A stretch of DNA of 51,528 nucleotides from a virus (Duplodnaviria; Caudoviricetes). The stretch lies in IMG/VR virus record IMGVR_UViG_3300023181_000010, positions 1-51,528 of that record, one strand, 5' to 3'. Under the pieces are notes generated by a model. The model worked only from the letters and a program-made list of their open reading frames with translations, had not been told where the DNA came from and did no database searches. The position numbers were made by a program, and so were the translations under genes. Of this stretch, positions 5,064 through 31,964 are shown one piece after another; within the stretch, counting starts at the first letter, position 1, and every line of letters begins with the position of its first letter.

Positions 5064-5108
5064 AACCCGGGCACCATCCCACAACGGCCGCCCGACGTCG
5101 GGAACACT
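5064..5108 (+). promoter_or_regulatory. Putative late promoter, copy 1 (leaderless, tail fibre)
   Basis: CCATCCCACAA-N18-AACACT-N7-ATG(5116). Confidence 0.7.
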
Positions 5109-5115
5109 CCGCACC

Positions 5116-7608
5116 ATGACCGTTGAACAGATCACCGTCGACACCCGGCACTCGACGATCGGGGCCGACGTCGCCGTGACCCGCGGGCTCGAGGTCCACC
5201 CGCTCCGCATGGTGAAAGGCGACTACCTGAGGACCGCCGAACCGTTCAACGTCGACGTGATCGGCGGTCTGGCCGTGTTCAACGTCGACACCACGTTGCC
5301 CGGGCAGGTGATCAAATTCGTCGAGCTGTGGCCCACCGGCACCACCAGGTGGTGCCAGGTCACCGACTCCCGCCCGTATCACCTCCTGGTCGACGTCGAC
5401 CGGCGGACCCTCGACCCCGTCGGCCCGCAACCATCCCCGGCGTGGGTCGCCTACGTCGAGGGGCTGATGGAGTCCTACGACACCGCGGCCGAGCTGGTCG
5501 GCAACGCAGACCAGGCCGTCACCGACGCCGTGGCGGCCGCGGTCCGTGCTGAGGCCGCCGCGATCGAGGCCGAGCTGTCCGCCGGCGGGATCGGGTCGGC
5601 GGTGGAGGACGCGATCGCCGCTGCTGCTGAGGCCGCGGCCGCCGCGCTCGGTGCGCAGGAATCGTCGGCGACGTCGGCCACCCAGGCCGGTGTCGCGACG
5701 TCGGCTGCTGGTGCTGCTGGTGGGTCCGCCACGGCGGCCGCGGGTTCCGCCGGGGCCGCGGCCGGGTCGGCGACGACAGCGATGACGGCGGCCGGGACGG
5801 CCACCGGGGCCGCCACGAACGCGAACACCGCCCGGAACCTGGCCGAGGACGCCGCAAACGACGCCCACCAGGACGCGATTGCCGCCGCAGGATCGGCCAC
5901 CAGCGCGAACACGGCACGGGTCGGTGCCGAGACTGCCCGGACCGGATCGGAAACGGCTAGAACCGAATCGCAGACCGCCCGAACCGACGCGCAGACCGCC
6001 CGGACCGGTGCTGAGACCGCACAGTCCGCGGCCGCCGGGTCGGCCACCGCGGCCGCCGGATCCGCTACTGCCGCCGCGGACAGCGCCGCCGCGGTGGCGA
6101 ACTACTACCCGTCGATACCGCAATTCACGGCCCCCTACCGTGCCGCCGCCGGCAACGGCCCGCCCACCGTCGGCGTGTCGATCAGCCCGACAGCGTCGCC
6201 GTCGTCCCTGATGCAGCGGAACACCGCCGGGCAGGCCGTGGCCGTCGCACCGACCGACCCGACCCACCTCACCCCGAAGCAATCGGTCCTCGACGCGCTG
6301 CTCGCATCGAACAACAACGGCACCCGGACGAACCTGGCAACGAACCCGTCATTCGAGACCGTCGTCGGCGGAACGGCCCTACCTGGCACCGGCGGTGTCG
6401 CCGCACTGACCCGGGCAACCGTCGGTGGCGCGAAATTCGGGACGTCCTACCTGCGGTCACTGTGGTCGACCAGCTCGACGGCCGCCGGCGGGAACCTGGC
6501 CGGCGGTGGCCTGTCCGGGATCTCCGGGGTGTTCAACACCACCCCCGGCGCGACGTATTCGATGTCGGCGTGGGTCCGACCGTCCAAGACGATTTCCCTG
6601 ATGCTCCGGTTCGACCCGACCGGGTTCGCCGCTGTCAACGGCCCGGCGGTGTCCTGCCCGGCGAACACCTGGACACGCCTCACCGTGACGACAATCGCCG
6701 GTGGCACCACCGCGAACTCGAATGTCCTGGTCGCCGCTGGTGTGGCCGCCCCGACGTGGTCCGCCGGTGACACCCTCGACGTCGACGGGATCTGTGTCGA
6801 GCTCGGTGACACCCCGGGTGAGTATTTCGACGGTGCGTCGCAGAACGCCTACTGGACCGGGACGGCCCACCAGTCGTCGTCGGTCGGTGTGTTCGACGCT
6901 GTCACCGTTGAGTCCCTGGCGGCCGCGGTGGCCGGTGTTCTGGCCCAGGCATGGCCGCTGTCGATGGTCACGGCGAAAGGCGACCTGATCAGTGGGTCGG
7001 CCGCCGGGGCCCTGTCTCGCCTGCCGTCGACGTCCGTCACCGACGGTGCGTTCCTGATGAAGAACGCCGGCGGGGCCGGTGGCATGTTGTGGTCGACGTA
7101 CCCGTTCCTGTCCGGCACCGGGTCGCCCGAGGGCAGTAGGGTCGCGCCGCCCGGCACCCGGTACGTCGACACGAACAACACGTTCGGTGTGCCCGAGTGG
7201 GTCAAGCGGACCGGCACCGGCAACACCGGGTGGACGCCCGTTGTCGGCGACACCGGGTGGCGATCGGTGTCGATCGACGCCGGCAGCTCCGGCACGGCTA
7301 CGAACGTCCTCATCCGCCGGTCCGGTGACCTGGTGATGATGGAGATCATCGGGTTCGCCTGCCCTGACGGGTCGCCGTCGCAGCCGATTCACACCCCGGT
7401 GGCCGGGTTCCGTTCCCGTGGCGGGACGGCCGTCTATCAGCCGTTTCGGGCATCCGGGACGACCAACCTGATCAACATCTACATGGCCGGCGGTGGATCG
7501 GTGTCGTTCTCCGGAACGTGGGCATCGGCGAATGGTTCACTGAATGCCCGTGTCCAATGGCTGACGTCCGATGCGTGGCCGACGAGTCTCCCAGGGAGTG
7601 CAGCATGA
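5116..7608 (+). CDS. Tail fibre / receptor-binding protein with Ala-rich shaft and carbohydrate-binding-like domain
   Basis: Stf-like SATAAAG and ART(G/E/D)xxT heptads; NLATNPSFE...LDVDGI.VE.G..PGEYFDG module; GTGSPEG...PGTRYVD...GTGNTGW and GDTGWR motifs. Confidence 0.8.
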   Translation: MTVEQITVDTRHSTIGADVAVTRGLEVHPLRMVKGDYLRTAEPFNVDVIGGLAVFNVDTTLPGQVIKFVELWPTGTTRWCQVTDSRPYHLLVDVDRRTLDPVGPQPSPAWVAYVEGLMESYDTAAELVGNADQAVTDAVAAAVRAEAAAIEAELSAGGIGSAVEDAIAAAAEAAAAALGAQESSATSATQAGVATSAAGAAGGSATAAAGSAGAAAGSATTAMTAAGTATGAATNANTARNLAEDAANDAHQDAIAAAGSATSANTARVGAETARTGSETARTESQTARTDAQTARTGAETAQSAAAGSATAAAGSATAAADSAAAVANYYPSIPQFTAPYRAAAGNGPPTVGVSISPTASPSSLMQRNTAGQAVAVAPTDPTHLTPKQSVLDALLASNNNGTRTNLATNPSFETVVGGTALPGTGGVAALTRATVGGAKFGTSYLRSLWSTSSTAAGGNLAGGGLSGISGVFNTTPGATYSMSAWVRPSKTISLMLRFDPTGFAAVNGPAVSCPANTWTRLTVTTIAGGTTANSNVLVAAGVAAPTWSAGDTLDVDGICVELGDTPGEYFDGASQNAYWTGTAHQSSSVGVFDAVTVESLAAAVAGVLAQAWPLSMVTAKGDLISGSAAGALSRLPSTSVTDGAFLMKNAGGAGGMLWSTYPFLSGTGSPEGSRVAPPGTRYVDTNNTFGVPEWVKRTGTGNTGWTPVVGDTGWRSVSIDAGSSGTATNVLIRRSGDLVMMEIIGFACPDGSPSQPIHTPVAGFRSRGGTAVYQPFRASGTTNLINIYMAGGGSVSFSGTWASANGSLNARVQWLTSDAWPTSLPGSAA

Positions 7609-7805
7609 CCGATTTCGCCGATTACGACGACGACCAGCTCGAGGAATTGAGGCTGGCCGCGGTGAACGAACAGGAACGCCGGGACCGGGTTCGGCAGGCC
7701 CCCGGGCAGGCCGCGCAGTTGGCGATCCGGATGAAGGCCGACGGTGGGGATGTGGCCGAGCTGATCACGGCGATCGAGTCGGTTCCGCCGGCCGCCCCCG
7801 AGTAG
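7605..7805 (+). CDS. Small protein coupled to tail fibre (possible fibre chaperone)
   Basis: ATGA overlap, GGGAG RBS. Confidence 0.65.
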   Translation: MTDFADYDDDQLEELRLAAVNEQERRDRVRQAPGQAAQLAIRMKADGGDVAELITAIESVPPAAPE

Positions 7806-7931
7806 GCCGGACGTCCGCCGGTATATTTTCTGGCATATTTGCCACCCGGTTGTCACTGAGATTCGTTGTGTGGCAACGGGTCTGCAATCGGGTGGAAGAT
7901 CGTTTTCCACGGATCTGTCACGGTGGCCGGC

Positions 7932-7980
7932 CGGGGTGTGACATTCGGCGTAGAAGTTCTACCGCGGATGTCACACCCCG
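7932..7980. repeat. Inverted repeat, 13-bp perfect arms, in a structured intergenic region
   Basis: CGGGGTGTGACAT ... ATGTCACACCCCG with inner GTAGAA/TTCTAC. Confidence 0.85.
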
Positions 7981-8084
7981 TTGCAAGGTTGTCCTGTTCA
8001 ACCCTAGACAGCCCCGCCCCCGACGTGTTCAAATGTATACAGACCCGATGGAGCCGCCACCCGGGCCGACAGACAGGACACGTC

Positions 8085-8276
8085 ATGCCCGACACCACCG
8101 CCCCGATCACCCCCCGCGAACTGATGGCCGAGCTCAGCGTTCCCGACCACGACCAGGACGCGTTCCTGACGTTCACCAGGATCACCTACGACGACATCGA
8201 CGCGCCGCTGACCGCCGAGGACGCCGCAGTCATCCGTGAGGTCGTCGGCGACTGGAACGCCACCCCGAACGTCTGA
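8085..8276 (+). CDS. Small acidic hypothetical protein
   Basis: AGGA RBS; followed by a terminator hairpin. Confidence 0.7.
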   Translation: MPDTTAPITPRELMAELSVPDHDQDAFLTFTRITYDDIDAPLTAEDAAVIREVVGDWNATPNV

Positions 8277-8285
8277 CCCACCCCC

Positions 8286-8317
8286 AACGGCCCCGACCCC
8301 ACCAGGTCGGGGCCGTT
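8286..8317 (+). terminator. Intrinsic terminator-like hairpin
   Basis: AACGGCCCCGACC / GGTCGGGGCCGTT. Confidence 0.7.
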
Positions 8318-8344
8318 CCGCATACCCCCTGAAAGGCACCCCGC

Positions 8345-9343
8345 GTGAAGATCACCGCGACACAGATCATCATCGAACTCGACGAGCTACCCGCCGTCGA
8401 GGTCCGCAAGTCCGACGGCACCCTGAGGACCGGATTCGCCCCCGGCACCGAACCCGAACCCATCGACACCGGATTCCGGTACTTCGAGGGCACCCACGTT
8501 CGGGCCCGCGGCATCGGATTCGAGTACCCGGCCGCCCTGATCCTCGACACCGTGAAGGCCCACCTGGCCCTGTTGGTGGCCGCCGAGACCAGGCGCACGG
8601 AGAAGCTGAACCGGGCCGTCGACAAGGCCCGGACGGCGTACGAGGCACGGATCCGCGCGGCCGAGCCGTTCGACAACGCCTACATCGAGGCCCAGTTTCA
8701 GCGGGTCCGGGCATTTGCGGCCGACGTCGCGACGAGATTCCCCGCCGAACCGACCCCGGCCCCCGTCATGGTGAGCACACCGCCGCTGGTCGTGTCCGGG
8801 TCGTGGCCGGTCGTCAACCCCGGCGAACCGATGAACGCGCCACAAACCCTGTCGGTGACTGTCTCGGTGTCCAGTATGGAGCTGGCCGCCGCGGTGGAAT
8901 GGTTCGAGGATCTGAACGTCCGGCGGGCCCCAGACCCGGCCTGGACCGCGCAACGGAGAATGCTGAACCGGTACTCCGATGCAAGCGAAACCGACATGGC
9001 GTTCGGTCACTTGCCGCCCGGCCTGCAATGGTGCGTGAACACCCTCAGCAAGTCCGACGGGCTGGACAAGATCCGGGCGTTGCTCGAGCAGGTCGAGTCG
9101 GTGCATGAAGTGCCGGTGCCGAACACGCGGATCCGGGCCGACGAACTCACCGATGCTCACATCGGCCGGTGGTTCAACCGCACGATGGACAACGGGGAGA
9201 TCATTCACGCCCGGATCACCGATACGGGCCGTCCCCACGGGGGAGACACCTATTTCCGGTCGACGTGGGGCCCGCACACCGTCGACAACAACACCGTGCT
9301 TGAGCTGTTCCCGGTCGGCTACACGGGGCCCGACGGTGGCTGA
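8345..9343 (+). CDS. Hypothetical protein
   Basis: GAAAGG RBS; 332-aa ORF with coding-like bias. Confidence 0.75.
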   Translation: MKITATQIIIELDELPAVEVRKSDGTLRTGFAPGTEPEPIDTGFRYFEGTHVRARGIGFEYPAALILDTVKAHLALLVAAETRRTEKLNRAVDKARTAYEARIRAAEPFDNAYIEAQFQRVRAFAADVATRFPAEPTPAPVMVSTPPLVVSGSWPVVNPGEPMNAPQTLSVTVSVSSMELAAAVEWFEDLNVRRAPDPAWTAQRRMLNRYSDASETDMAFGHLPPGLQWCVNTLSKSDGLDKIRALLEQVESVHEVPVPNTRIRADELTDAHIGRWFNRTMDNGEIIHARITDTGRPHGGDTYFRSTWGPHTVDNNTVLELFPVGYTGPDGG

Positions 9344-9698
9344 TCTCATCGGGGGCCGGTGCCCGTACATGGCTCACGACAACTGCCAGTGCTCGAGCCG
9401 TGAGGGTCACCAGTCCGAGCACACCTGTTCCGTGTCGCACGCCGACGTCCCGGTCCGGCAGGCCGGGAACCTCACCCGCGACCACCTGAACACCACCATC
9501 GCGTTCCGCTCACTGGCCCCCGGCAGAGACGTGTCCGGGGTGCTGTTCGCGTTCGCTCAGGGGCCCCGCGACACGCGGTTGTTCCTCGACGACGACCGGC
9601 AAAGTGGGTACGTGGTGAATCCGACCAGCCGGATCTCATTCCCGACCCCCCGACCCGTCAACACCACCCCACCAACCACCGATGTGGAGATCCAATGA
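9336..9698 (+). CDS. Hypothetical protein, Cys/His-rich N-terminus
   Basis: Overlapping GTG start; C..C.C...GH...H motif. Confidence 0.65.
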   Translation: MADLIGGRCPYMAHDNCQCSSREGHQSEHTCSVSHADVPVRQAGNLTRDHLNTTIAFRSLAPGRDVSGVLFAFAQGPRDTRLFLDDDRQSGYVVNPTSRISFPTPRPVNTTPPTTDVEIQ

Positions 9699-10273
9699 CC
9701 GACACGAAGCCGCCCACCGGGTTACCGCGCTACGAGCACGACCCGACCACACACCGTGTCGAATGGACGATCGGTCGGTACGCCGTGAGCGGCCGGATCA
9801 TCTGTAAGGGCACCGAATGCCGACTGACACACCTGAGCGGTGACGAGTCGTGCCACGCCGTCACCGGATCAACGATCGGGTCGCCGTGCTCGTGCGGTGG
9901 AATCCTGACCGACGCCGGGCACTGCAACTTCGATGAGTGGATCAGCAACTCCGGCGATATGGCCGAGCAGTATTCCGGCCCACCCGATCAGCCGTTGCGG
10001 GACGGCCCGATCATCTTCGACTGGGAAGGCCAAGACTCCGGGTATTCATGGTTCTACGTCGTTCCCGAACCGGCGGTGCCGGCCGATCAGACGGCGTTCA
10101 TGGCCGCCCGGGATCTGACCGAGGAACACACCGGCCGACAGGCCCACATCGAGGGTGACACTGACCCTGTGTGGATCACATCGGTCACTCACCTGGTCTG
10201 TCTCGACGACTGTGGCGATTTCACCATCGACGCTGACACCCGGGTCACCCTCCTGCCCGAGAGTGGGACCTGA
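9695..10273 (+). CDS. Hypothetical Cys-rich protein
   Basis: GGAG RBS, ATGA overlap. Confidence 0.7.
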   Translation: MTDTKPPTGLPRYEHDPTTHRVEWTIGRYAVSGRIICKGTECRLTHLSGDESCHAVTGSTIGSPCSCGGILTDAGHCNFDEWISNSGDMAEQYSGPPDQPLRDGPIIFDWEGQDSGYSWFYVVPEPAVPADQTAFMAARDLTEEHTGRQAHIEGDTDPVWITSVTHLVCLDDCGDFTIDADTRVTLLPESGT

Positions 10274-10671
10274 TGGACGTCACGCCCCGCCCCTACCTGG
10301 CCCGTATCGGCGACCCCGACCGGGCGCTCGGTGCCGACACCCACCTGGCCCCGGCGAAGATCCTCCGGCCGATGCCGTGTTGCGGCCGGACCATCATCAT
10401 CGGCAACACGTCGCTCACCGGTAGCCCCTACGCGGTGTCATGCCCGGGTGTGTTCGTCGACGGCCGGTGGCGATTTTGGGCACCGGCCGAGTTCGACCGG
10501 ATTCGGGCGGTGCTCGAGCCGATCCACCAACCGGCCCCGGCCGTCGATCTCCGGTTCCTGGCAGACGACGAGGACCAGGACGAACCGCCGATGTCGCCGT
10601 GGACCGCTCACGCCCTGGTGTTCCTCGCCGGGTTGCTCACCGGGTTGTTGATCTGGTGGGTGACCCTGTGA
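10273..10671 (+). CDS. Hypothetical protein with C-terminal transmembrane helix
   Basis: TGATG coupling; ALVFLAGLLTGLLIWWV. Confidence 0.65.
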   Translation: MDVTPRPYLARIGDPDRALGADTHLAPAKILRPMPCCGRTIIIGNTSLTGSPYAVSCPGVFVDGRWRFWAPAEFDRIRAVLEPIHQPAPAVDLRFLADDEDQDEPPMSPWTAHALVFLAGLLTGLLIWWVTL

Positions 10672-10859
10672 CAGAGAACGGGGCCGCCCTGGTCGCACTG
10701 AACCGCGTCGACACCACCGCCGCGGCACTCGCCATTGCCGAGGCGAACGCCGTCGCCGCGATCCGGCACGCACACCGGGCCGGCGCATCCGAGCTGTCCA
10801 TCACCAAAGCATCGGGTCGGGCCCGGAACACCGTGCGGAAGATCATCGGCAAGAAGTAG
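10668..10859 (+). CDS. Small HTH DNA-binding protein
   Basis: AIRHAHRAGASELSITKASGRARNTVRKII, a typical small actinophage HTH. Confidence 0.65.
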   Translation: MTENGAALVALNRVDTTAAALAIAEANAVAAIRHAHRAGASELSITKASGRARNTVRKIIGKK

Positions 10860-10979
10860 GATCGCTGTCGGGGCCGTGCTTTCCGCCGCAGACCATCGCA
10901 GCGGCCGGCACGGTGCCCTATGATCGTCGATGTCACGCGCTGGCCGCCGGCGGCGAAACCTCCGGCCACCCGTCGACCT

Positions 10980-11020
10980 GAACGGCCCCCGCTACAGACA
11001 CAGTCTGGCGGGGGCCGTTC
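10980..11020 (+). terminator. Intrinsic terminator-like hairpin
   Basis: GAACGGCCCCCGC / GCGGGGGCCGTTC. Confidence 0.7.
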
Positions 11021-11121
11021 CCCGTTCTGCTACCGTGACGACCAGATCCGATCAGCCCTCCGGTACGCCGGGCATGTCGGACGTGCACTACGCCGGTCGT
11101 GAAGCTGATAGCGATCGGAGC

Positions 11122-11160
11122 AACGGCCCGGGTCGACCCTCGACGGTCACCCGGGCCGTT
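11122..11160 (+). terminator. Intrinsic terminator-like hairpin
   Basis: AACGGCCCGGGT / ACCCGGGCCGTT. Confidence 0.7.
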
Positions 11161-11227
11161 CTGCTACCGTCGCACCCAGGAACCCCGGTCGTTGCTAACC
11201 CCGACTGCCGGGGTTCCTGCCTATCCA

Positions 11228-11272
11228 GACACGGGCACCGTCCCACAATCGCCGATCCTCACCGGCGACAGT
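11228..11272 (+). promoter_or_regulatory. Putative late promoter, copy 2 (leaderless, portal)
   Basis: GACACGGGCACCGTCCCACAA-N18-GACAGT-N6-ATG(11279). Confidence 0.75.
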
Positions 11273-11278
11273 GCAGGG

Positions 11279-12799
11279 ATGACGACGCCGACACGACGGA
11301 CCGCACTCAAGATCGCCGGCACTGAGATCGGCCACACCGGGCACATGCGCCCCTCGTATGCCGTAGGGACCAGGGCACGGCAGGTCTGGGAGGCCGAACC
11401 GTCGGATCCGAACCTCGAGCTCAGGTTTCCCCTGTCGGTGGCCGTCTACGACTCGATGCGCCGCACCGACGGCAAGGCCCGGCAACTGTTGGCCGCGTTC
11501 ACCCAACCGATCCTGTCCGCCCAGTGGGACCTCGAGGGGGAGGACGTCCGCCCTGAGGTGATGGCCGCGGTCCGGGCGGATCTCGGTCTGCCCGAGCGGG
11601 GGAAGGCCCGCCGGTCCCGGCACCGCAACGCCGGCGGTGTGATCTGGCTTGACCACCTGAGGCAGGCACTGTCCGCGTTGCCGTTCGGGTTCATGCCGTT
11701 CGAGCAGGTCTATTCGGTGACGTTCCCCGGCGACCCCGGTCACCCGGTCGACATCACCGACCGGCCGTTCGTGCACCTGCGGAAGCTTGCCCAGCGTCTC
11801 CCGACGACTGTCCAGGCGATCCGTGTCAACGAAGAGGGTGGGTTGTCTGGCATCGTCCAGAACCCGCCCGTCGGTGCACTGTGGGATCGCAACGGGTCCG
11901 GGCCGATGTCACCCGGGACCGAGCTCGGTGGAGGGAAATTCATCGGCGTCGACCGGCTGGTGATGTACGTCATCGACCGTGAAGGTGCCGACTGGTACGG
12001 CACGTCGGCGCTCCGGCAGGCATACAAGAATTGGCTGATCAAGGATGAGCTGATCCGCACCGGCGCGACATCCGTCGAACGTAACGGAATGGGTCTGCCG
12101 GTCGTCTACTTCGACGACAACGCGATGGACTCCGCGGACGCACTCGAGATCGCCACCCAGGCCCGGGCCGGCCGGACGTCCGGTGTGGCCCTGCCGCACG
12201 GGAAGGCGAAGCTCGAGCTGATCGGCGTCACCGGTGCCCTGATCGACCCGTTGCCGCAGATCAAATACCACGAAGAGGCAATGTCCGCGGGCATCCTGGC
12301 GATGTTCATGGATCTCGGTCACGACGCCGGCGCGCGATCGCTCGGTGACACATTCGTGGAGTTCTTCAAGGGCTCCGTGATCGCCACGGCGCAGGATTTC
12401 GCGGACACCGCAACCGAGCACATCATCCGTGACCTGGTCGAACTGAACTACGGCCCGGACGAGCCGTTCCCGTCGCTGGTGCCCCGGGATATCAACGTCG
12501 GTGCGTCGGCGACCGCCGAGGAACTGGCCGCCCTGTTCGAGGCCGGCGCGATCACCCTGGACCGGTCCGCCGAGGACTACGTGCGGACCCGGTTCCGGAT
12601 GCCCGCGATCGACCCGAAGGACCGGGAGGACGTCGCCGCGAACCCGGCCGCGCAACCCCCGGCCCCGCCGGCGGTGCTCGAGCCGGTCCCGGTCGACGTC
12701 GAGGAAACCGCGGCCCTGTCCGAGCACCGCCGGGCGTACGCCGCGAACCTCACCGACCGGGCCCGCCGGTATGCCGCAACGGCGGCCGCGCACCGGTGA
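11279..12799 (+). CDS. Portal protein (Mu gp29/DUF935-like)
   Basis: YDSMRRTDG, YG.SALR.AY..W..K, ER.GMG.P, GARSLG motifs; first gene of head module. Confidence 0.9.
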   Translation: MTTPTRRTALKIAGTEIGHTGHMRPSYAVGTRARQVWEAEPSDPNLELRFPLSVAVYDSMRRTDGKARQLLAAFTQPILSAQWDLEGEDVRPEVMAAVRADLGLPERGKARRSRHRNAGGVIWLDHLRQALSALPFGFMPFEQVYSVTFPGDPGHPVDITDRPFVHLRKLAQRLPTTVQAIRVNEEGGLSGIVQNPPVGALWDRNGSGPMSPGTELGGGKFIGVDRLVMYVIDREGADWYGTSALRQAYKNWLIKDELIRTGATSVERNGMGLPVVYFDDNAMDSADALEIATQARAGRTSGVALPHGKAKLELIGVTGALIDPLPQIKYHEEAMSAGILAMFMDLGHDAGARSLGDTFVEFFKGSVIATAQDFADTATEHIIRDLVELNYGPDEPFPSLVPRDINVGASATAEELAALFEAGAITLDRSAEDYVRTRFRMPAIDPKDREDVAANPAAQPPAPPAVLEPVPVDVEETAALSEHRRAYAANLTDRARRYAATAAAHR

Positions 12800-14586: not shown

Positions 14587-14909
14587 CCGAGACAGGTTTG
14601 ATACCAACGAAAGTCGCACTACGTCGCCCGGTGGCCGAGGCGTACCGGCTCGGTCGGGTGATGGGCCGGCGGCACCTGAACGCCGACGTCGACGCCCGGT
14701 TGCCGCGGTGCCCGTTCATCCTCAACGGCCCGTCATGGGTGCACCACCGGCTCGCGATCGCCTGGCACCGCGGGTTCCGGGAACTCATCCCACACCCCGT
14801 GCCGACGGACGCAGACCGCGCCGAAGGTGCGATCCCGGTCGATCACGACACGACGGCCGTCCCACAATCAGCCGCCGAATTCAGTGACGGTGTGCACCAT
14901 GCCCACTAA
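14583..14909 (+). CDS. Small hypothetical protein with Rmf/CrpP-like pattern
   Basis: GTGA overlap; AYRLG...G...CPF...AWHRGF. Confidence 0.5.
   Translation: MTETGLIPTKVALRRPVAEAYRLGRVMGRRHLNADVDARLPRCPFILNGPSWVHHRLAIAWHRGFRELIPHPVPTDADRAEGAIPVDHDTTAVPQSAAEFSDGVHHAH
14847..14891 (+). promoter_or_regulatory. Putative late promoter, copy 3 (leaderless, protease)
   Basis: GACACGACGGCCGTCCCACAA-N18-GACGGT-N7-ATG(14899). Confidence 0.75.
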
Positions 14910-16161: not shown

Positions 16162-16217
16162 CCACCAGCACCACCGAACAGCACCCGTCAAACCCCTGAC
16201 CACCTGAAAGGCAACTC

Positions 16218-16613: not shown

Positions 16614-16681
16614 CCCACCCCGTTCGACCAGCAGTGACCCACCCACCCCGGCCCCGGCCGACACGCAAGGAGTAACAGAAA

Positions 16682-18345: not shown

Positions 18346-18356
18346 GACCGCACCCC

Positions 18357-19956: not shown

Positions 19957-19962
19957 CAGCGC

Positions 19963-20007
19963 GACACGGCAACCGTCCCACCACCAACCACCCCCGACCG
20001 TGAAGGT
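19963..20007 (+). promoter_or_regulatory. Putative late promoter, copy 5 (leaderless, sheath operon)
   Basis: GACACGGCAACCGTCCCACCA-N18-GAAGGT-N7-ATG(20015). Confidence 0.75.
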
Positions 20008-20014
20008 AACCACC

Positions 20015-21831: not shown

Positions 21832-21874
21832 TCCGCCATTCCGGCAACCCCTCACAGAACAGGAGCACGACCTA

Positions 21875-22297: not shown

Positions 22298-22300
22298 TCG

Positions 22301-22349
22301 ACCCGGCGATGAGGGGCACGGGTCGTGTCCCCTACCCTCATCGCCGGGT
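22301..22349 (+). promoter_or_regulatory. 15-bp-stem hairpin after the tube gene (terminator or attenuator)
   Basis: ACCCGGCGATGAGGG / CCCTCATCGCCGGGT; loop complementary to 22434-22448. Confidence 0.65.
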
Positions 22350-22449
22350 TACCCCGTAGTACCAGCACGACACCCGTGGACACGACACGGGCAGCAGCAC
22401 CGGCCCACCACCCGGCGGGCCGCCACCACCTCGAGGGAGACACGACCCA

Positions 22450-23028
22450 ATGAGTGCACCACTCAGCGACTACGACGACATCGACCCGTCCGACCCGTAC
22501 GGGGAAAAGACCGCGGCCGTCCAGGCCGACACCGACGGCGCGTACACCCCGGAAGGCCCGTTCGGGGCCGTCCTGTCCGACCTGTCCATCCTCACCGCCG
22601 ACGCCGAGACCGATATCAGTCGGGTGTCGGTGTTCACCCTCGACAAGGTCAACGGCCGTGAGGGTTACTCACTCCGCGTCCAGGTCGGGTCGCTCGGTTC
22701 CAACGACGTCGAGAAGTGGCGGAAGATCGCCGCCAACGGGCAGCGTGGCGGCAAGCCGAACCCGTCCCACTGGTACGCGCTGATCCTCGCGAACCAGACG
22801 GAACAGATCCTCAAGGACGGCAAGCCGTTCGCTGATGCGGACGGCAACCCGTTCACGTTCCGGGATGAGGAATTGCAGGCCGCGCTCGGTGCGCAGACCG
22901 CGGCCGCCGCAGTTCGGAAGCTGATCGGCGCGGATCCGGTGCTCATCGCGATCGGGTCCGGTGTCCTGACCGAGGCCGGATTCGGGGAGGACGCCGAAGC
23001 GGTGGACCCCGAGGTGCCGGGAGAGTAA
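22450..23028 (+). CDS. Tail assembly chaperone
   Basis: Between tube and tape measure; AGGGAG RBS; ends ...VDPEVPGE. Confidence 0.75.
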   Translation: MSAPLSDYDDIDPSDPYGEKTAAVQADTDGAYTPEGPFGAVLSDLSILTADAETDISRVSVFTLDKVNGREGYSLRVQVGSLGSNDVEKWRKIAANGQRGGKPNPSHWYALILANQTEQILKDGKPFADADGNPFTFRDEELQAALGAQTAAAAVRKLIGADPVLIAIGSGVLTEAGFGEDAEAVDPEVPGE

Positions 23029-23231: not shown

Positions 23232-26200
23232 GTGTCCAACGAATCATCGGAAACTCTGTCCCTCCGGGTGCTGTTGGACGACCTGGCATCCGCCGGGTTG
23301 AACCGGCTCCGCACTGAATTCTCCGGTGTCACCACGTCGATCCGGGCCGCCGGCACGGCCGCCGGGACACTCACGACCCAGATGACCGCCGCCACCGCGG
23401 CCGCCCGGAATTCGGCCACACAGACCCAGCGTCTCGCCAACGCCGCTACCGCCGCGACGACGGCCACCAGGGCCCAGGTAGCCGAGACCAGGGCCGCTAC
23501 GGCCGCCACGCAGCGGCACGGCGGGGCAATGCAGGCCAACGCCGCCGCGTTCCGGAACAACACCACCGGCGTCCGGTTGCACACAACGACGATGCGTGAG
23601 GGGAACGCCGCCGCGCAGCGGTTCACCACGGCGATGCAGCTCGCCACGATGGGTGTCCGCGCTCACGGCCGGATGTCCCGGGAAGCATCCGGACACGTCC
23701 GTGCACTCGGCACCGCATCCGAGCGGGCCGCAGTGCAGGTCCGGAACCTCGCCGTCGCAGCCAAGGCCGCCGCCCGAGACCTCGAGCTCATGGGCAGGGC
23801 CGCCGCACGGATGGCGGCCCAGCAGACCGCCGCCGCCGCCGACGTCACCGCGGCAATGACCCGGATGGCGGCCGCGACGAACATGGCCGCGGCCGCGCAG
23901 GAACGGCAGATCGCTAGTCTCCGGCGCGGTTCGTCGTCCGCCGGGGCCGCTGGCCGGACCGTCGCCGACGCCTACGGCAACGGGCTCGTGTCAGGTATGC
24001 GCGCCCAGGCCGGGAAACTCCAAACCGTCGTGTCAAAGGTGCTGTCGCCGTTGACGAAAAACGCCGGGCTGTTGGGTCTGGCCGGTCTGGCCGGTGGCGG
24101 AATGCTGGCCGCAGCCGGCGTGAACCGGCTCAGCACCATCGAAGATGCGAACATGGCGTTCAAGACCCAGCTGGGCACGAAGGCCATGGCCCGGGAATTC
24201 TCGACCGAGCTGTTGTCGTTCGCCCGAACGACGCCGTTCCCGTTCCAGGACATCGCCGGGCAGGCCCGGAACCTGATGGCGTTCGGGCTCGAGCGGGACA
24301 AGGTGATCCCGACCCTGACCGCGGCCGGTAACTCAGCGGCCGCCGGCGGGTCCGGGACGATGGGCATGAACAACGTCGCCGTCGCACTCGGCAAGATCCT
24401 GTCCCAGGGGCAGATCTACGCGGACGATATCAACAGTCTCGCCGTCAACGGTGTGTCAGCTCGAGCGATCCTCGCCAATCACTACGACGTCGACGGCCCC
24501 GGTCTGCGGAAGATGATGATGAAGGGGCAGATCGGCGGGTCTGAGGCCGTCGACGTCCTGGTCGACGGCATCCAGAACGGCAACGACGGCCGGATGGGGA
24601 AGGTCACCGGCGTCGATGGCCTGATGAAAGATATGAAGGGCACGTGGTCCGGCACGCTCTCCGATTTCAAGGCATCGGTCACCGGCGGGATGGCCGGCGT
24701 GATGAAGGATGCGATGCCGCATCTACAGGCCGGAATCAAGAAATTCGGCGAAGGTTTCTCCGCGCTCCCCCGGATCGTGAACCGGGTCGTCGACTACGCG
24801 AAGGCCCCGCTGGAAGGACTGACCGGGATCATCGGTGGAATCGCCGCACCGCTCAAAAGCATGTTCGACGTGTTCCGTGGGTCGTCCGCCCCGGTGCAGG
24901 CCGCAGTGATCGGGCTCGCCGCGTTCGCGCTCGTCGGTGTCCGGGTGGCGAAGGCGTTGCAGATGATGTCGGCGCGCGGCCGGCAGAATTGGGCGTTCGC
25001 GTCATACGGTGTCGGGCCGCTCGCGAACCTACGGGCCGCGATGACAACGACAGCAGCGCGGGCCCGGATGTTCGGACAGTCGTTCACCTCATCGGGTATC
25101 GCCTACACGCGGGCCCTGGCCGCGATGGGTGGCATCGCGTCCGGAACGTACCTGACCAGGTCGCAGGCCATTTTTGCCGGCGTCCAGCGGTCGTTCACCG
25201 GTCTAGTCGGTTCGGTGGCATCCGGTGCGCGCCGTATGGGTGCGTCGCTGATGGGTGCTCTCGGTGGCGGTTGGGGAATCGCGATCATGGCGGGCATCAC
25301 CGCCCTGACGATGTGGATCGGCGCGCAGGGCCGGGCCGCCGAGGCCGAGCGGATGCACCAGGAGTCGTTGCGGTCCCTGGCCGACACGATGAACTCGTTC
25401 ACCGGTGCAACGACCGAGGCCACGGTCGCGAAGGTCGCGAAGGACTGGGAGGACCAGGGGCTCAACGATCAGGCGGTCGCGCTCGGTCTGGACCCGTACA
25501 AACTGCAATCCGGGATCCTCAACGGCGGCATCGCCGGGACGGCCGCGACCGATTCGATCAACCAGATGATCGCCGGGAAGCTCGAGGAAACCCACTCGTG
25601 GAAAACGTACGGGGATACCGCGAAGGCCGCCGGGATCACCGCCGCCGACGTCCTGTACGCGACACAGACCGACCAGGCGTTCCTACTGAACCGGATGCGG
25701 TCGGGTATCGAGGATCGGTTCCCGGGGCTCAGCGGTGCCTACAAGAACGACGCCGTCGACCGGGTGATGGCCGGGTTCCGGGATGACGCGATCGCCGCGT
25801 CGACGGACTACCAGCCGTGGCTGGACCGGATGAAGTCCGACACGCTCCACAAGGTCGAGGCGCAGTCCAAGAGGATCAACGAGACCCGCGGCATCATCCA
25901 GACCGCGATGGACGCCGCGAAGATCGAGTCCCCGAACCTGCGGGACCTGTTGACCGACCCGAAGAACCAATCGCTGTCGATCAACGAGATCATGGGCAAG
26001 GCCACCCTCACCGGCGATTCGGACGGTTTCTGGGGGCAGGACCCGGTAGCCCGACTCGAGAAGGAAATTCAACTCACCAACGCGTTGACCGACGTCACCT
26101 ACAAGTCCGAGGCCGGCGCGTTCTACCTGTCGAAGGAGGCCGCGGCCGCCGCAGATGCCGCGATCGGTGGCAAGAAAAAGTCGATCGAGCTCACCGACGA

Positions 26201-27620
26201 ACAGATCGAGGCTCAGAAAGAATTCATGGACAAACTGCGGGAGACGAAAGAGGAACAGAAGGACTGGCGCTACGGGCTCGACGAGGATGCCCAGAAGCTC
26301 GCCACGACCCGACTGACGGCCCTTGCCCAATCGCCCTACGTGAAGATGTACGCCGACATCGCCGACAGTATGCAGTCCGCGATCGACCGGGCCGACATCT
26401 TCCGGCAGGCGATGGACCAGGCACTCGGCATCGACCGTTCATCCGAAGATCTGGCCGTCGACTATGCCGCCGGCAAGGTCGCCCTGGCCGAGGTGTTCAA
26501 GGGTGCTACGGAGAAAACCGGCGGCAACGTCGAGTCGGTGATGGGGAAGGAAGGAGATCTCGCGATCGACGCCGAAGGTGATGCCGGCGTGGCCGCCCGG
26601 GACATCTACGCGGGTCTCGCCAATTTCCGGAAGCTCACCGATGCGAAGATCCTCGACGCGTTCGACCAGGCCGGTGGGCTCGCAAATTACGACGTCGCAC
26701 TGAAAGCCATGCAGACGGCGCAGCAGCAGGGCGCAGCCGATTTCATGGCGGCCGCCGCGACCCAGGGCATCGACCCCGGGTACGCGAACGCGCTACAGAA
26801 CCGGGACTACGACCGGGACGGTGGTGTGGACCGGCACCTGGTCAACATCCTCCCCGAGGCCGATGTGGCCGCGTTCATTCAGCGGATCGAGGCCGCCGGG
26901 GAGAACGCCGCGCTCAGTGGGATGACCGAGATCGAGGGGCAGGCCCAGGAGTTCGTCGCGTGGATGACTGAACAGAATCTCGCCCCGGATGTGGACCTGA
27001 ACACCCTGCCCGCCCTGGCAGCGAATGAGGGGCTCCGGAAGGCCGTCGCCGCCGAGATCCACACGAAGATGCAGCTCGAGGCAATCGCGTGGATCAAGCT
27101 CAACGTGGCCGGTGCGACCAGGCCGGTCGACGGTGGTTACAACGACCTGCCGATGGGTCAGACCCCGCCGAAGAAACGAGCGAACGGCGGGTTCGAGAAG
27201 CACGACGCCGCCTACGCGGACGGTGGCGTCCGGCAGGCGACGATCGCCCGCGGTGGCAGCAACATCCTGTGGGCCGAGAATGAGACCGAGGACGAGCTTT
27301 ACGTGCCGTTCGCGATGTCGAAGCGGGCCCGGGCCGAGCACTGGATGCGCGTCGGTGCCGCCCGGATGGGTGGCCGGTTCACCGCCGCCGGGGAGAACAC
27401 CCGGCCGATGGCATCCGGTGGGCTCATGGCCGCCCCGGCCTACTCGCCGACCCCGTCGGGTGGCGGTGGCGGGTCGGTGGCCGTGACGATCGCACCGGGT
27501 GCGATCAGCGTCGTCGCCGGGCCGGGGATGTCCACCCAGGCTGTCGCCGCCGAGGTGATGTCCGCTCTCCGCGACCAGGTGGAAGAGATCTTCCGGGAGA
27601 ACGACGCAAGGAGTTTCTGA
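23232..27620 (+). CDS. Tape measure protein
   Basis: 1462 aa Ala-rich; FARTTPF tape-measure domain; C-terminal ANGG/ADGG..AE...E..VP motifs; AGGAGG RBS. Confidence 0.93.
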   Translation: MSNESSETLSLRVLLDDLASAGLNRLRTEFSGVTTSIRAAGTAAGTLTTQMTAATAAARNSATQTQRLANAATAATTATRAQVAETRAATAATQRHGGAMQANAAAFRNNTTGVRLHTTTMREGNAAAQRFTTAMQLATMGVRAHGRMSREASGHVRALGTASERAAVQVRNLAVAAKAAARDLELMGRAAARMAAQQTAAAADVTAAMTRMAAATNMAAAAQERQIASLRRGSSSAGAAGRTVADAYGNGLVSGMRAQAGKLQTVVSKVLSPLTKNAGLLGLAGLAGGGMLAAAGVNRLSTIEDANMAFKTQLGTKAMAREFSTELLSFARTTPFPFQDIAGQARNLMAFGLERDKVIPTLTAAGNSAAAGGSGTMGMNNVAVALGKILSQGQIYADDINSLAVNGVSARAILANHYDVDGPGLRKMMMKGQIGGSEAVDVLVDGIQNGNDGRMGKVTGVDGLMKDMKGTWSGTLSDFKASVTGGMAGVMKDAMPHLQAGIKKFGEGFSALPRIVNRVVDYAKAPLEGLTGIIGGIAAPLKSMFDVFRGSSAPVQAAVIGLAAFALVGVRVAKALQMMSARGRQNWAFASYGVGPLANLRAAMTTTAARARMFGQSFTSSGIAYTRALAAMGGIASGTYLTRSQAIFAGVQRSFTGLVGSVASGARRMGASLMGALGGGWGIAIMAGITALTMWIGAQGRAAEAERMHQESLRSLADTMNSFTGATTEATVAKVAKDWEDQGLNDQAVALGLDPYKLQSGILNGGIAGTAATDSINQMIAGKLEETHSWKTYGDTAKAAGITAADVLYATQTDQAFLLNRMRSGIEDRFPGLSGAYKNDAVDRVMAGFRDDAIAASTDYQPWLDRMKSDTLHKVEAQSKRINETRGIIQTAMDAAKIESPNLRDLLTDPKNQSLSINEIMGKATLTGDSDGFWGQDPVARLEKEIQLTNALTDVTYKSEAGAFYLSKEAAAAADAAIGGKKKSIELTDEQIEAQKEFMDKLRETKEEQKDWRYGLDEDAQKLATTRLTALAQSPYVKMYADIADSMQSAIDRADIFRQAMDQALGIDRSSEDLAVDYAAGKVALAEVFKGATEKTGGNVESVMGKEGDLAIDAEGDAGVAARDIYAGLANFRKLTDAKILDAFDQAGGLANYDVALKAMQTAQQQGAADFMAAAATQGIDPGYANALQNRDYDRDGGVDRHLVNILPEADVAAFIQRIEAAGENAALSGMTEIEGQAQEFVAWMTEQNLAPDVDLNTLPALAANEGLRKAVAAEIHTKMQLEAIAWIKLNVAGATRPVDGGYNDLPMGQTPPKKRANGGFEKHDAAYADGGVRQATIARGGSNILWAENETEDELYVPFAMSKRARAEHWMRVGAARMGGRFTAAGENTRPMASGGLMAAPAYSPTPSGGGGGSVAVTIAPGAISVVAGPGMSTQAVAAEVMSALRDQVEEIFRENDARSF

Positions 27621-27621
27621 C

Positions 27622-29560: not shown

Positions 29561-29805
29561 TGGGCCGGCCGATCCCCGGCACGGGGAAACCGAAGGAGGG
29601 GCCCGGACTGTTCGGTGTGTGGGCCGCCGAGGTCGCGTCGATTCGCGATTCCGGAATTATGATCCGCGTTCCGAAGCTCACCGGGCAGGGGCTCAACGGG
29701 CCCGTGTCGATCGTCGCCGGGCTCGAGGTGGAACCGGGCGACCTGGTGTGGGTGCTCCCCGTCGACGGCCGCCGGGATCTGTTCCTGATCATCGCCCAGC
29801 GCTGA
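29560..29805 (+). CDS. Short baseplate spike-like (OB-fold) protein
   Basis: IRVPKL...GP...PGDLVWV...GRR. Confidence 0.65.
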   Translation: MGRPIPGTGKPKEGPGLFGVWAAEVASIRDSGIMIRVPKLTGQGLNGPVSIVAGLEVEPGDLVWVLPVDGRRDLFLIIAQR

Positions 29806-29849
29806 CCACGGTCGCCGTCCCACAACGGCCGCGGTGGGCCGGGCATGAT
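29805..29849 (+). promoter_or_regulatory. Putative late promoter, copy 6 (leaderless, baseplate wedge)
   Basis: ACCACGGTCGCCGTCCCACAA-N18-CATGAT-N7-ATG(29857). Confidence 0.7.
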
Positions 29850-29856
29850 TCGCCCC

Positions 29857-30174
29857 ATGCCAATCTCGCACCCGTTCCGGCTCGGTGTCGGTGGCCGGGT
29901 CGCCACCACCGCCCCCGGGTCCGACGCCGAAGCTGAGGACGCGATCCGCGTGCTGATCGGCTCACGCCCGAACGAACGCCCGATGTGCTGGTCGTTCGGG
30001 ATACCTGACCCGACGTGGTCGACGCTCACCGCGGACACCCTGAACGCCGCCCTCGAGCTCTGGGGCCCGGACGGTGTCCGCGTCACACGGGTCGACACCC
30101 GGCCCCGCACTGAAACGGTGCAGGACGTCACCGTCGAATACACCCGCAACACGGCAGGAGAAACCGACCGATGA
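29857..30174 (+). CDS. Baseplate wedge protein (GPW/gp25 family)
   Basis: SHPFR, RPNERPM...FG. Confidence 0.85.
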   Translation: MPISHPFRLGVGGRVATTAPGSDAEAEDAIRVLIGSRPNERPMCWSFGIPDPTWSTLTADTLNAALELWGPDGVRVTRVDTRPRTETVQDVTVEYTRNTAGETDR

Positions 30175-31310
30175 CATCCCCATCCCCGGATCTGGCGACG
30201 CTGGTCACCGCGACGATCCATGACGTCACCGAAAACGAGCTGGTCGACGCCGCGATCGCCGCGTTCCAAACGTGGGTGCCCGACTGGCGGCCCGCCGAAG
30301 GCCAGACTGAGGTGATGCTGTTGCAGGCGATGGCCGTCATCGCCGGGCAGACCATCTACGCGACGAATCAGATGCCCGAGAAGGTGCTCGGTGACCTACT
30401 GGCGATGAACGGGGTGTGGCGGACACCGGCCGTCGCCGCGACCGCGCTGATCGCGATCAAGGCCGATCCGTCGTTGCCGTCCGAGCGGACGTTGCCGGCC
30501 GGCACGCAGTTCCGGGCCGTCGTCTCCCCCGGGGTGTCCTACGATTTCGCGCTCGAGGGGCCCGCAACGTTCACCACCGATGCGCTGACCCAGTTCGGGA
30601 CGGCCCGGGCTGTCATCGCCGGTGACGAGCCGAACGGAATCCCCGCCGGGTTCGACGTCGATTTGCTCGACGGGGTGTCCTGGATCGAGTCCGCCGAGAT
30701 CGTGAACGAGGTCGTCGGCGGGGTGAACGTCGAGGCGTTCACGGCGTTCCTGACCCGCGGGGCCGCCCGGCTCCGCAGGCACTCAACGACGCTGGTGACC
30801 GCGGATCATTTCGCCGCGGCCGCCCTCGACATCCCCGGTGTCGTCCGGGCCCGAACCCTGAACCTGTACGACCCCGACGAGCCGGGAGTACCGGGCGACC
30901 ACCCCGGGAACGTCACCGTCGCCGTGTCCGACGGTGACGGCAACGCCGTTCCGGAACCCGTCGCCGATGCGCTGTTGGCCTACCTGACCGAGAACGCGAT
31001 CGCCGGGTTGATCGTGCACATCGTCGCGCCGACGGTCAACGAGGGGATCACGCACACCATCGCAATCCGGGTGCTCCCCGGGTACGACCCGCCCACCGTC
31101 GCCGGGCTGGTGCAGCAAAAGGTGGCCGCGTTCCTGTCGCCGGCGCGGTGGCCGTTCGACCGGTTCATCTACAAGAACCAACTGGTCGGCATCGCGTCGA
31201 CCGTCCCCGGCGTGGAACGGGTCGTGTCGGTGTCCCCTGATATGGACATCGAGCTGGTCGGTCTGGCCCCGCTACCTGACCACACCGTCGTCGTGACGGT
31301 GACACCGTGA
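30171..31310 (+). CDS. Baseplate J-like protein
   Basis: LPAGT.F, GG...E, VT..F...A..IPGV.RA, PG.VTV. Confidence 0.9.
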   Translation: MTSPSPDLATLVTATIHDVTENELVDAAIAAFQTWVPDWRPAEGQTEVMLLQAMAVIAGQTIYATNQMPEKVLGDLLAMNGVWRTPAVAATALIAIKADPSLPSERTLPAGTQFRAVVSPGVSYDFALEGPATFTTDALTQFGTARAVIAGDEPNGIPAGFDVDLLDGVSWIESAEIVNEVVGGVNVEAFTAFLTRGAARLRRHSTTLVTADHFAAAALDIPGVVRARTLNLYDPDEPGVPGDHPGNVTVAVSDGDGNAVPEPVADALLAYLTENAIAGLIVHIVAPTVNEGITHTIAIRVLPGYDPPTVAGLVQQKVAAFLSPARWPFDRFIYKNQLVGIASTVPGVERVVSVSPDMDIELVGLAPLPDHTVVVTVTP

Positions 31311-31921
31311 CCGAACCGGTCCCGTCCCCCGGTGAGCTGTTGTGGTCCTACCTGCCGGCGGTGGTCCGCGACGCCGACGACGTCGGCCACGACGGGGGCC
31401 CGCCGGATCTCCTACGCGATTACGTCGAGTCGATCGCCGGGATGGTCGAACCGTCGACGTACACGCTCGCCCAGGGCGCAGCGGGTCACCTCACCGACGC
31501 CGCCCTGACACCGGCCGCGCTGGTGCCCTGGCTGGCTCAGGCGCTCGGTGTGGACCCGTTCGGGTCCGAGGCCACCGTCCGGGCCCGGATCGCCGCACGG
31601 GCCGAAGCTCCGGCCACCGGCTCGAGGTCCGCGATCGCCGCGTCCGCCCGACAGTTCCTCATCGGGGAACGACAGGTGCTCATCGGCGCAGACCCACCGT
31701 GGGGAATCAAGATCGGTGTCCGCCCCGCAGACCGAGACATCACCCTGGCCGCCCTGGCCGCGAAGGTCGTCGCCACCGGCGTGGTCCCCGCCGGGTACGT
31801 CCTCGAGGCCGTCGACGTCCTCGCGTCGTGGGCCGCAGTAGAAGCCGGCATCGGTGGCACGTGGGCCGGGGCATACGGGTCGTGGTCCCGGATCGAGGCG
31901 TTCGGCGTTGACCTTGGATGA
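31307..31921 (+). CDS. Baseplate/tail protein (P2 gpI-like)
   Basis: YLP.V.R..D, PWLAQ..GV, PAG motifs after baseplate J. Confidence 0.8.
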   Translation: MTEPVPSPGELLWSYLPAVVRDADDVGHDGGPPDLLRDYVESIAGMVEPSTYTLAQGAAGHLTDAALTPAALVPWLAQALGVDPFGSEATVRARIAARAEAPATGSRSAIAASARQFLIGERQVLIGADPPWGIKIGVRPADRDITLAALAAKVVATGVVPAGYVLEAVDVLASWAAVEAGIGGTWAGAYGSWSRIEAFGVDLG

Positions 31922-31964
31922 CACACCCGACGTCCCACCATCCCACCGTGATTGATCGGAAAGT
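31920..31964 (+). promoter_or_regulatory. Putative late promoter, copy 7 (leaderless, tail fibre/lysis)
   Basis: GACACACCCGACGTCCCACCA-N18-GAAAGT-N6-GTG(31971). Confidence 0.7.

Follow-up and report, generated by a model that had tools for sequence, protein, structure and literature searches.

The 51,528-base virus record IMGVR_UViG_3300023181_000010 (the window, that is, the whole stretch of DNA analysed, which is the complete record) carries seven copies of a two-block repeat on its coding strand, and these sites are, on balance, probably a private class of promoter that belongs to a single lineage of actinobacterial myophages. From the computed motif, geometry, conservation, synteny and co-occurrence we infer promoter activity, late timing and a protein that reads the upstream block. 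Pfam and PHROG scans of 69 open reading frames (ORFs) identified the window as the genome of a phage with a contractile tail, whose head module resembles that of Mu and whose tail resembles that of P2, and its closest cultured relatives are the Arthrobacter cluster AO and AR myophages, at a protein identity of ~40%. With positions numbered from the A of the start codon (+1), the predicted promoter comprises an optional GACAC from -51 to -47, a near-invariant C-x-TCCCAC-A-(A/C) box from -40 to -31, and a minimal -10 hexamer, VANNNT, from -12 to -7, followed by C at -1 and A at +1.

All seven sites proposed by the initial annotation were found on the + (coding) strand, in the range 5–32 kb, with the exact 18-nt spacing and the hexamers it had listed. 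The layout is a 21-nt box, GACAC-N5-CCGTCCCACMA, then exactly 18 nt, and then the hexamer. Copy 1 (5064–5108; box 5064–5084, hexamer AACACT 5103–5108; 35.0 bits) stands before ATG 5116 of an 830-aa minor-tail-like protein (phrog_6614 minor tail protein, E 8.8e-30). Copy 2 (11228–11272; hexamer GACAGT 11267–11272; 42.2 bits) precedes the portal gene at ATG 11279, and a matching copy lies ahead of portal in relatives. Copy 3 (14847–14891; hexamer GACGGT 14886–14891; 37.7 bits) precedes the protease-scaffold gene at ATG 14899, and copy 4 (15427–15471; hexamer AACAGT 15466–15471), whose 42.6 bits are the window maximum, lies within the ORF of that gene. Copy 5 (19963–20007; hexamer GAAGGT 20002–20007; 38.3 bits) is followed by ATG 20015 of a 109-aa gene and then by the sheath (20344–21831) and tube genes; its counterpart in relatives is found ~295 nt ahead of the sheath gene. 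Copy 6 (29805–29849; hexamer CATGAT 29844–29849; 32.6 bits) leads into ATG 29857 of a baseplate W-like gene (phrog_5026 baseplate protein, E 1.6e-24) and then Baseplate_J and Tail_P2_I, and copy 7 (31920–31964; hexamer GAAAGT 31959–31964; 35.3 bits) leads into GTG 31971 of a tail-fibre-like gene (31971–33452) that matches tail protein PHROGs.

At six of the sites the start codon falls at the predicted +1 without a Shine-Dalgarno (SD) sequence, as had been described, and opens a long virion ORF; the distances from the hexamer are 7, 6, 7, 7, 7 and 6 nt (ATG 5116, 11279, 14899, 20015 and 29857, and GTG 31971). The copy at 15427 lacks an adjacent start codon because it is located inside the ORF 14899–16161. 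The claim that all copies precede virion genes is borne out by the Pfam and PHROG matches, with 15427 inside the protease-scaffold gene; the products are minor-tail-like, portal, protease/scaffold (at its start and in its interior), the small pre-sheath protein, baseplate W and tail fibre. The exact GACAC in 5/7 sites (5064 reads AACCC and 29805 reads ACCAC) was likewise reproduced, as was the ACGG-N3-CCGT dyad in four of the seven (11228, 15427, 19963 and 29805). In all seven hexamers the second base is A and the sixth T, and none begins with T.

Taken alone, the 9-mer CCGTCCCAC is not enriched in the window (47 matches with up to one mismatch versus 56.9 expected). A weight matrix scored the seven sites at 32.6–42.6 bits, the next best position on either strand at 12.1 bits, and the sites under leave-one-out at 14.9–40.2 bits. 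The reduced pattern TCCCAC-N20-NANNNT occurred seven times on the + strand and three times on the - strand, versus 0.56 per strand in 50 shuffles. A consensus scan of the structural region (4000–23000) found no canonical sigma-70-like promoter versus 1.3 expected, and terminator scans gave nothing exceeding shuffles. The box sequence TCCCACA shares at most ACA with TTGACA, and solely at 19-nt spacing. GACAC was ruled out as a -35 element, since it lies 34 nt from the hexamer.

The motif also recurs in relatives, where the initial annotation had suggested that it be sought. A scan of viral contigs with the exact 16 specified bases returned 45 stretches, and the matches of correct geometry came from the Arthrobacter phages Martha, BarretLemon, Zartrosa, Brent, Jawnski, Beans, Piccoletto and Abba, together with 69–71 kb AR phages and a few metagenomic contigs. 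Relatives with the exact motif keep the N18 spacing and VANNNT, with ATG 6 nt downstream. Within a set of 11 genomes (the window, five records from the motif scan, four reached via a zinc-ribbon protein described below, and phage Vibaki), TCCCAC-N20-NANNNT occurred at 72 coding-strand and 9 other-strand sites, versus 0.1–1.2 per strand in shuffles. The first hexamer base at the 72 sites was C in 38, G in 24, A in nine and T in one, which extends to the family the lack of T at -12 first seen in the window. A start codon (ATG or GTG) follows 6 nt past the hexamer at 34/72 sites and 7 nt past it at 8/72, together 42/72. In column counts over these sites, position -1 was C in 45 and +1 was A in 46, the box positions -40 and -32 were C in 67 and A in 58, respectively, and the spacer between box and hexamer showed no conservation. 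The A and T at hexamer positions 2 and 6 were preset in this search pattern, so that for those positions only the count in the window is independent.

The upstream GACAC is more variable, being in register at 32 of the 72 sites. It is missing from the sites of provirus G011 and from most Vibaki sites, which read CCTTCCCACAC, and neither of the two sheath-locus sites examined in the related proviruses G017 and G018 carries it. The reverse situation was found in genome G010, which keeps GACACGG at a decayed TCCCAC box, a variant that recurs at the pre-sheath site of G023. Relatives do not conserve the ACGG-N3-CCGT dyad, and a dimeric operator is therefore unlikely.

Conservation extends to the placement of the sites, and the proposal of a fixed-geometry, mostly leaderless promoter set held up in this comparison. 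Syntenic positions in relatives are before portal, before and inside protease-scaffold, before the small pre-sheath gene, after tube, before the fibre-like gene and before baseplate W. In Martha, which was annotated independently, genes 14, 24 and 30 begin exactly at the predicted +1; gene 30 corresponds to the site of copy 6 and gene 24 to that of copy 7. A sweep by sheath-protein alignment covered 80 loci, 38 of them with an exact core, and gave 65 coding-strand sites versus one on the other strand; the core sites at sheath loci sit in two matching places, either at the pre-sheath position or after the tube gene. Related loci were also sought with the single protease protein, and this search returned no loci. 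The motif-bearing phages span 56–72% G+C and probably have different hosts. In one contig that was negative by exact match (L250, ~1190–1240), a box with one change, TCCCGC, stands where expected, ahead of the pre-sheath gene, so that the family is more widespread than counts of exact matches indicate. In Vibaki, copies at 33155, 40655, 41107 and 48121 place this promoter type ahead of non-structural genes and of the first gene of the genome as well.

The copy at 15427 occupies a position of its own, inside a coding sequence. Third-position G+C stays in one frame throughout the ORF 14899–16161, and the box is read in frame with it, encoding DTAAVPQ. An in-frame intragenic copy was found in 9/9 genomes examined, with the peptide DTAxVPQ in six (the window and five relatives) and DTARIPH, DTPPVPP or DTAPVPH in three more. 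The promoter box embedded in the gene therefore yields a conserved peptide, and a constraint at the DNA level becomes visible in protein alignments. All nine genomes have an SD sequence and an in-frame ATG or GTG 37–61 nt past the hexamer (40–61 in six and 37–58 in three). The predicted nested gene in the window (15506–16161, + strand) has its SD sequence AGGGAG at 15506–15511, ATG 15520 (the first in-frame start, 49 nt past the hexamer) and its stop at 16161, and would encode 213 aa. GTG 15476, which opens an ORF in the +1 frame after this site, was ruled out as a start because third-position G+C stays in the protease frame.

The N-terminal part of the protease-scaffold product matches the head maturation protease families phrog_3894 (E 9.1e-68) and phrog_976, and residues 253–401 match phrog_2976. 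Because the SD sequence and in-frame start follow the box in every genome examined, we read 15427 from the sequence as a promoter within the gene that serves a nested scaffold protein; the initial annotation had missed this feature. A transcript from this site would be translated through the SD sequence and ATG 15520 to give the scaffold protein, and the same copy would add message for the downstream decoration and major capsid genes. Scaffold genes nested within genes for head proteases are known from Mu (I/Z) and lambda (C/Nu3). In those genes, as in the present one, a protease at the N-terminus is joined to a C-terminal half resembling a scaffold, and an SD sequence of its own precedes the internal in-frame start; the head module of the window is itself Mu-like (Portal_Mu). 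Unlike in Mu and lambda, the internal start here appears to have a dedicated promoter written into the coding sequence; we know of no such internal promoter described for either phage.

The absence of a visible phage sigma factor or WhiB, noted earlier, was confirmed in the six frames of the window, which contain no WhiB domain and no Sigma70_r2 match at E <=1. The initial annotation had named three phage candidates for the reader of the box, at 10668, 45977 and 47416. The one at 45977 proved to be conserved and to co-occur perfectly with the motif; no relative of those at 10668 and 47416 was found in the related genomes. When 70 window proteins were searched by tblastn against seven complete relatives, the whole structural module recurred, and just two non-structural proteins did so: the protein at 45977, and a small helix-turn-helix (HTH) protein at 40366–40623 that is a second conserved candidate, overlooked before.

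The first of these (candidate factor A, 45977–46573, + strand) is an orphan of 198 aa whose N-terminus carries a CxxC...CxxCxGxG zinc ribbon; it also has long helices, and the helix at its C-terminus is basic. It was present in 7/7 complete relatives by tblastn. In the phage collection it matched 72 records, all Arthrobacter phages, and the protease matched 157 records, 72 of them Arthrobacter, the two 72-record sets being compared by count alone. The family has 159 representatives at E <=0.001, and scans of 70 members yielded no Pfam family and no Ogr_Delta match at E <=0.1. A profile search of the PDB gave solely a DnaJ/anti-TRAP-like CxxCxGxG knuckle at the N-terminus (E 0.037). The structure predicted from a 70-row alignment was confident (predicted local distance difference test, pLDDT, 93.4; predicted template modelling score, pTM, 0.87), and that from five sequences was poor (pLDDT 48.8); the locus search for this protein used a 5-row alignment. 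The model found no match among solved structures (best Foldseek E 2.8; best VIA Z 3.9), matched its own family alone in BFVD and gave no lead in the ESM Atlas, and a word-indexed homologue search returned the query protein alone. The gene adjoins terminase genes, just upstream of them, in G002, G012 and G013; in Vibaki and the window its neighbour is an HNH gene.

The HTH protein (candidate factor B, 40366–40623, + strand; true start likely ATG 40402) is of the MerR/excisionase/sigma-region-4 type. Its sub-threshold matches are HTH_17 (E 1.1e-4), MerR, Phage_Cox and Sigma70_r4_2, the last being the single match to that domain, at 14.1 bits, inside this 85-aa gene. The protein was detected in nine related genomes or fragments, and not in G010 or the 5-kb fragment G012. 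An incomplete eighth box, AACACGGCGAACGTCCCACCG, without VANNNT, lies at 40198–40218 on the - strand, 197 nt upstream of the HTH start and pointing away from the gene. It is the best-scoring non-site in the window (12.1 bits with one matrix and 15.3 in another scan). A divergent TCCCAC box within 400 nt of the HTH start was found in 13 of 18 HTH-bearing genomes, versus an estimated ~2.5 by chance.

Co-occurrence of motif and candidates was followed over 24 larger contigs with a sheath homologue, of which G014–G023 are motif-positive and G024–G037 motif-negative. The zinc-ribbon protein was found in 10/10 motif-positive and 0/14 motif-negative contigs, and the HTH protein in 9/10 and 0/14. Core sites in the motif-positive contigs numbered 4–14 on the coding strand and 0–1 on the other, except in G023 (one on each), and those in the motif-negative contigs 0–3, not above reversed controls. 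Completeness of the motif-negative contigs was 98–100% for three of the 14 and 22–69% for 11. G010 and G023, which lack the HTH gene, are the genomes with the degenerate TCCCAC box, and they look like one lineage. Because of this co-occurrence, the box decay in G010 and G023 and the divergent boxes, the HTH protein appears to be the likelier DNA reader and the zinc-ribbon protein a universal partner, as suggested by a correlation within one clade.

Together these observations suggest a mechanism in which host RNA polymerase would melt the DNA via the conserved A(-11) and T(-7) and, on its own, would use these promoters poorly, because they have neither T at -12 nor a TTGACA-like -35; both absences fit dependence on an extra factor. 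One or two earlier-made phage proteins would supply the missing recognition at the TCCCAC box, the best candidates being the HTH protein as the DNA-binding part and the zinc-ribbon protein as a co-factor or polymerase-binding part. Transcripts would begin at the start codon or a single base ahead of it, so that six blocks of virion genes would be expressed from leaderless mRNAs. A bolder version, which we regard as possible rather than probable, is that a two-protein kit (a sigma-region-4-like HTH protein and a zinc-ribbon protein without a solved relative) retargets the principal host polymerase to TCCCAC-N20-VANNNT, that this is a sigma appropriation in the style of MotA/AsiA arisen independently in Actinobacteria, and that the same promoter has been planted in coding sequence for the nested scaffold.

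Instead of promoters, the repeats could in principle be a recombination, packaging or RNA-level signal. We consider this highly improbable, as their orientation strictly follows the coding strand, an A/T-anchored hexamer stands at a constant distance from the box, the start codon falls at the predicted +1 at 42 of the 72 family sites, the sites head virion-gene operons in all relatives, and the spacer sequence is not conserved. If the sites are promoters, the question becomes who reads them. The initial annotation had pointed to host WhiA and WhiB, which would bind GACAC and co-activate with the principal host sigma factor, tying virion production to the state of cell division. The non-template GACAC upstream of the -35 position at five window sites agrees with this, as does a WhiA/WhiB study in which the sepX target has the same strand arrangement and a leaderless transcript (PMC10243135). 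Five bases are too few, though, to be diagnostic of a WhiA site. The lineage of G010 and G023 retains GACACGG despite decay of the TCCCAC box, so that GACAC may have a reader other than the HTH protein. Nevertheless, GACAC is optional across the family, being in register at fewer than half of the sites, which makes the WhiA reading weak, and the peak of conservation is TCCCAC, where, according to that study, WhiB touches the DNA just upstream of -35 non-specifically; WhiA motifs there also differ in spacing and strand between targets, and here the placement is rigid (PMC10243135). The composite is moreover not enriched in two host genomes, and the six frames of the phage contain no WhiB gene. 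The WhiA/WhiB link is accordingly very doubtful as a general account; WhiA may have a role at the GACAC-bearing subset of sites.

A host alternative sigma factor of the extracytoplasmic function (ECF) type could instead read the promoters without any phage factor, the phage borrowing a small host regulon. Two blocks at fixed spacing are formally like alternative-sigma promoters, and with no phage sigma domain detectable a host one would be needed. The motif, however, is not enriched in the two Arthrobacter chromosomes scanned (5.2 and 4.9 Mb): box and hexamer with one mismatch occurred 9 and 11 times versus 13 and 15 in reversed controls, and the full leaderless pattern once and not at all versus 0 and 1. 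Correct-geometry viral matches are limited to AO/AR-type genomes and related metagenomic contigs, the motif persists over the wide G+C range of phages that probably have different hosts, and A at -11 with T at -7 suits a -10 of the principal-sigma type. A host alternative sigma factor is an improbable reader. A further alternative accepts the promoters as real and makes the zinc-ribbon protein a packaging or morphogenesis accessory, with the HTH protein alone, or an undetected fast-evolving small protein, as reader. This would explain its place beside terminase or HNH genes and a fold that matches nothing known to bind DNA, and tblastn at E <0.05 can miss small regulators. Against it, the zinc-ribbon protein is kept in every motif-bearing genome of both comparisons, including G010 and G023, which lack the HTH gene, and in the window it is encoded ~5.6 kb upstream of the terminase gene. 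We judge the accessory role unlikely.

Several observations weigh against phage-read late promoters as we propose them. No RNA data set was listed for the window, no mapped transcript 5' ends were found for any relative, and the comparison with hosts covered two Arthrobacter genomes. The co-occurrence is confounded by descent, since motif, structural module and the two genes may be co-inherited, and most motif-negative contigs are more distant or incomplete. All the HTH matches are below cut-offs and resemble the HTHs of excisionases and small terminases as much as sigma region 4, and in AO phages the HTH gene is not adjacent to a box. The zinc-ribbon model has no match to a DNA-binding or sigma fold, and its proximity to HNH or terminase genes in several genomes means that it could be a packaging accessory. 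Finally, the non-structural copies in Vibaki mean that exclusively late use is not universal.

Matches to the exact motif were also sought in bacteria. Among 80 retrieved from those listed, three had NANNNT 18 nt downstream, which is about the chance level. At least one of the three (L063), in the Nocardioides metagenome-assembled genome G008, has the full leaderless geometry and lies in a cluster of sites resembling phage DNA. Contigs C44 and C553 of this genome carry one-strand clusters of three and two motif copies, which are probably phage or prophage DNA of the same lineage binned with a non-Arthrobacter host.

Overall, the proposed arrangement is like those phage late or middle promoters that depend on an activator, as in P2 (Ogr), Mu (C) and T4 (MotA/AsiA), with an actinobacterial leaderless start added; membership in the P2, Mu or T4 activator families could not be shown. 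The late promoters of P2 are activated by the zinc-finger protein Ogr, of the P2/186/P4 Ogr-Delta family. As in P2, a P2-type tail module (Baseplate_J, Tail_P2_I, W-like, sheath, tube) is split into operons, each headed by one conserved upstream element with a poor -35, and a small zinc-binding phage protein is conserved alongside the promoters. Unlike the dyad near -55 in P2, the element here is asymmetric and overlaps -35; the transcripts are predicted to be leaderless, and the candidate has 198 aa, an unmatched fold and no Ogr_Delta match. In T4 middle promoters a MotA box replaces the -35, and MotA acts with the sigma-remodelling protein AsiA. These promoters share with ours an A/T-anchored -10 and a phage-specific box at the -35 position, and our phage likewise encodes a pair of candidate proteins, of which one is predicted to bind DNA. 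Our sites differ in that the box is TCCCAC, the host is actinobacterial, and the candidates showed no relation to MotA or AsiA in sequence or fold. Mu late promoters are activated by C (Mor/C); the Mor family was not listed in the Pfam-A scan of the 69 ORFs at E <=0.01, from which small unlisted ORFs were excluded.

Actinobacterial leaderless promoters have TANNNT followed by 6–7 nt to ATG or GTG. The present sites agree with them in the distance from hexamer to start, in the second (A) and sixth (T) hexamer bases, and in a start codon at +1; they differ in the near-complete loss of the initial T, in the rigid additional TCCCAC box and in the absence of the pattern from two host chromosomes. 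The WhiA/WhiB-dependent sepX promoter likewise gives a leaderless transcript and has a non-template GACAC ahead of its -35 (PMC10243135), whereas here GACAC is optional and rigidly placed, the main block lies where the WhiB contact is non-specific, and a canonical -35 is missing. A description of the motif was not found in searchable literature; work on phage ArV1 may describe promoters, and a survey of Arthrobacter phages (PMC5513430) contains no occurrence of promoter, motif, sigma or leaderless. The new elements are lineage-wide conservation, the predicted internal scaffold promoter and two concrete candidate factors.

To our knowledge, late-gene control in actinobacteriophages is largely unknown despite thousands of sequenced genomes. 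The sites described here define a sharply delimited and directly testable class of putative promoters, shared by no fewer than 72 records of cultured Arthrobacter phages and by many relatives that are uncultured, with two specific candidate regulators, one of which has an unmatched fold. They also provide a conserved case of a predicted promoter embedded in protein-coding sequence, which would set the ratio of scaffold to protease, and they allow gene starts to be corrected, as leaderless starts become exactly predictable. If activity depends on phage factors, the system could be developed into a switch that ties gene expression tightly to the phage, for use in Arthrobacter and related hosts.

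Nearly all genes of the window lie on the + strand. The large terminase (71–1516) is followed, after the stretch discussed below, by the Portal_Mu portal (11279–12799, E 7e-41), a MuF-like protein (12796–14586), the head protease/scaffold (14899–16161), the major capsid (16682–17599), the sheath (20344–21831), the tube (21875–22297), the tape measure (23232–27620), the baseplate W, J and I genes (29857–31921), the fibre-like gene (31971–33452) and the endolysin (34932–35882), and a replication/recombination region extends over ~37–51 kb. Positions 1–127 are identical to 51402–51528, and IMG/VR classes the record as having direct terminal repeats. The 127-base length of the repeat suggests that the identical ends arose as a k-mer overlap in the assembly of a genome that is circular or permuted. 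Should the ends overlap, the gene at 50799–51464, a small-terminase candidate by position, leads directly into the large terminase at 71.

The ~9.7 kb between terminase and portal (1539–11228) have no counterpart in AO/AR relatives. This stretch holds an N6/N4 DNA methylase (2860–4149) and the 830-aa tail-like protein with its own promoter copy (5064), and its ORF 1539–1991 has a sub-threshold match to an Acb2/Tad1 hairpin (E 9e-4) and could be an anti-defence sponge. The early region contains a second methylase, of the C-5 cytosine type (37071–38063, E 6.5e-29), and a DUF1643 protein (39340–39993, E 4.1e-35). Between 44134 and 45946 the ORF calls overlap in three frames, so that the boundaries are those of predicted genes only; they comprise a winged-HTH/replication-initiator-like ORF (44134–44862), a zinc-binding ORF (44859–45350) and an ORF with an HNH match at its C-terminus (44681–45946).

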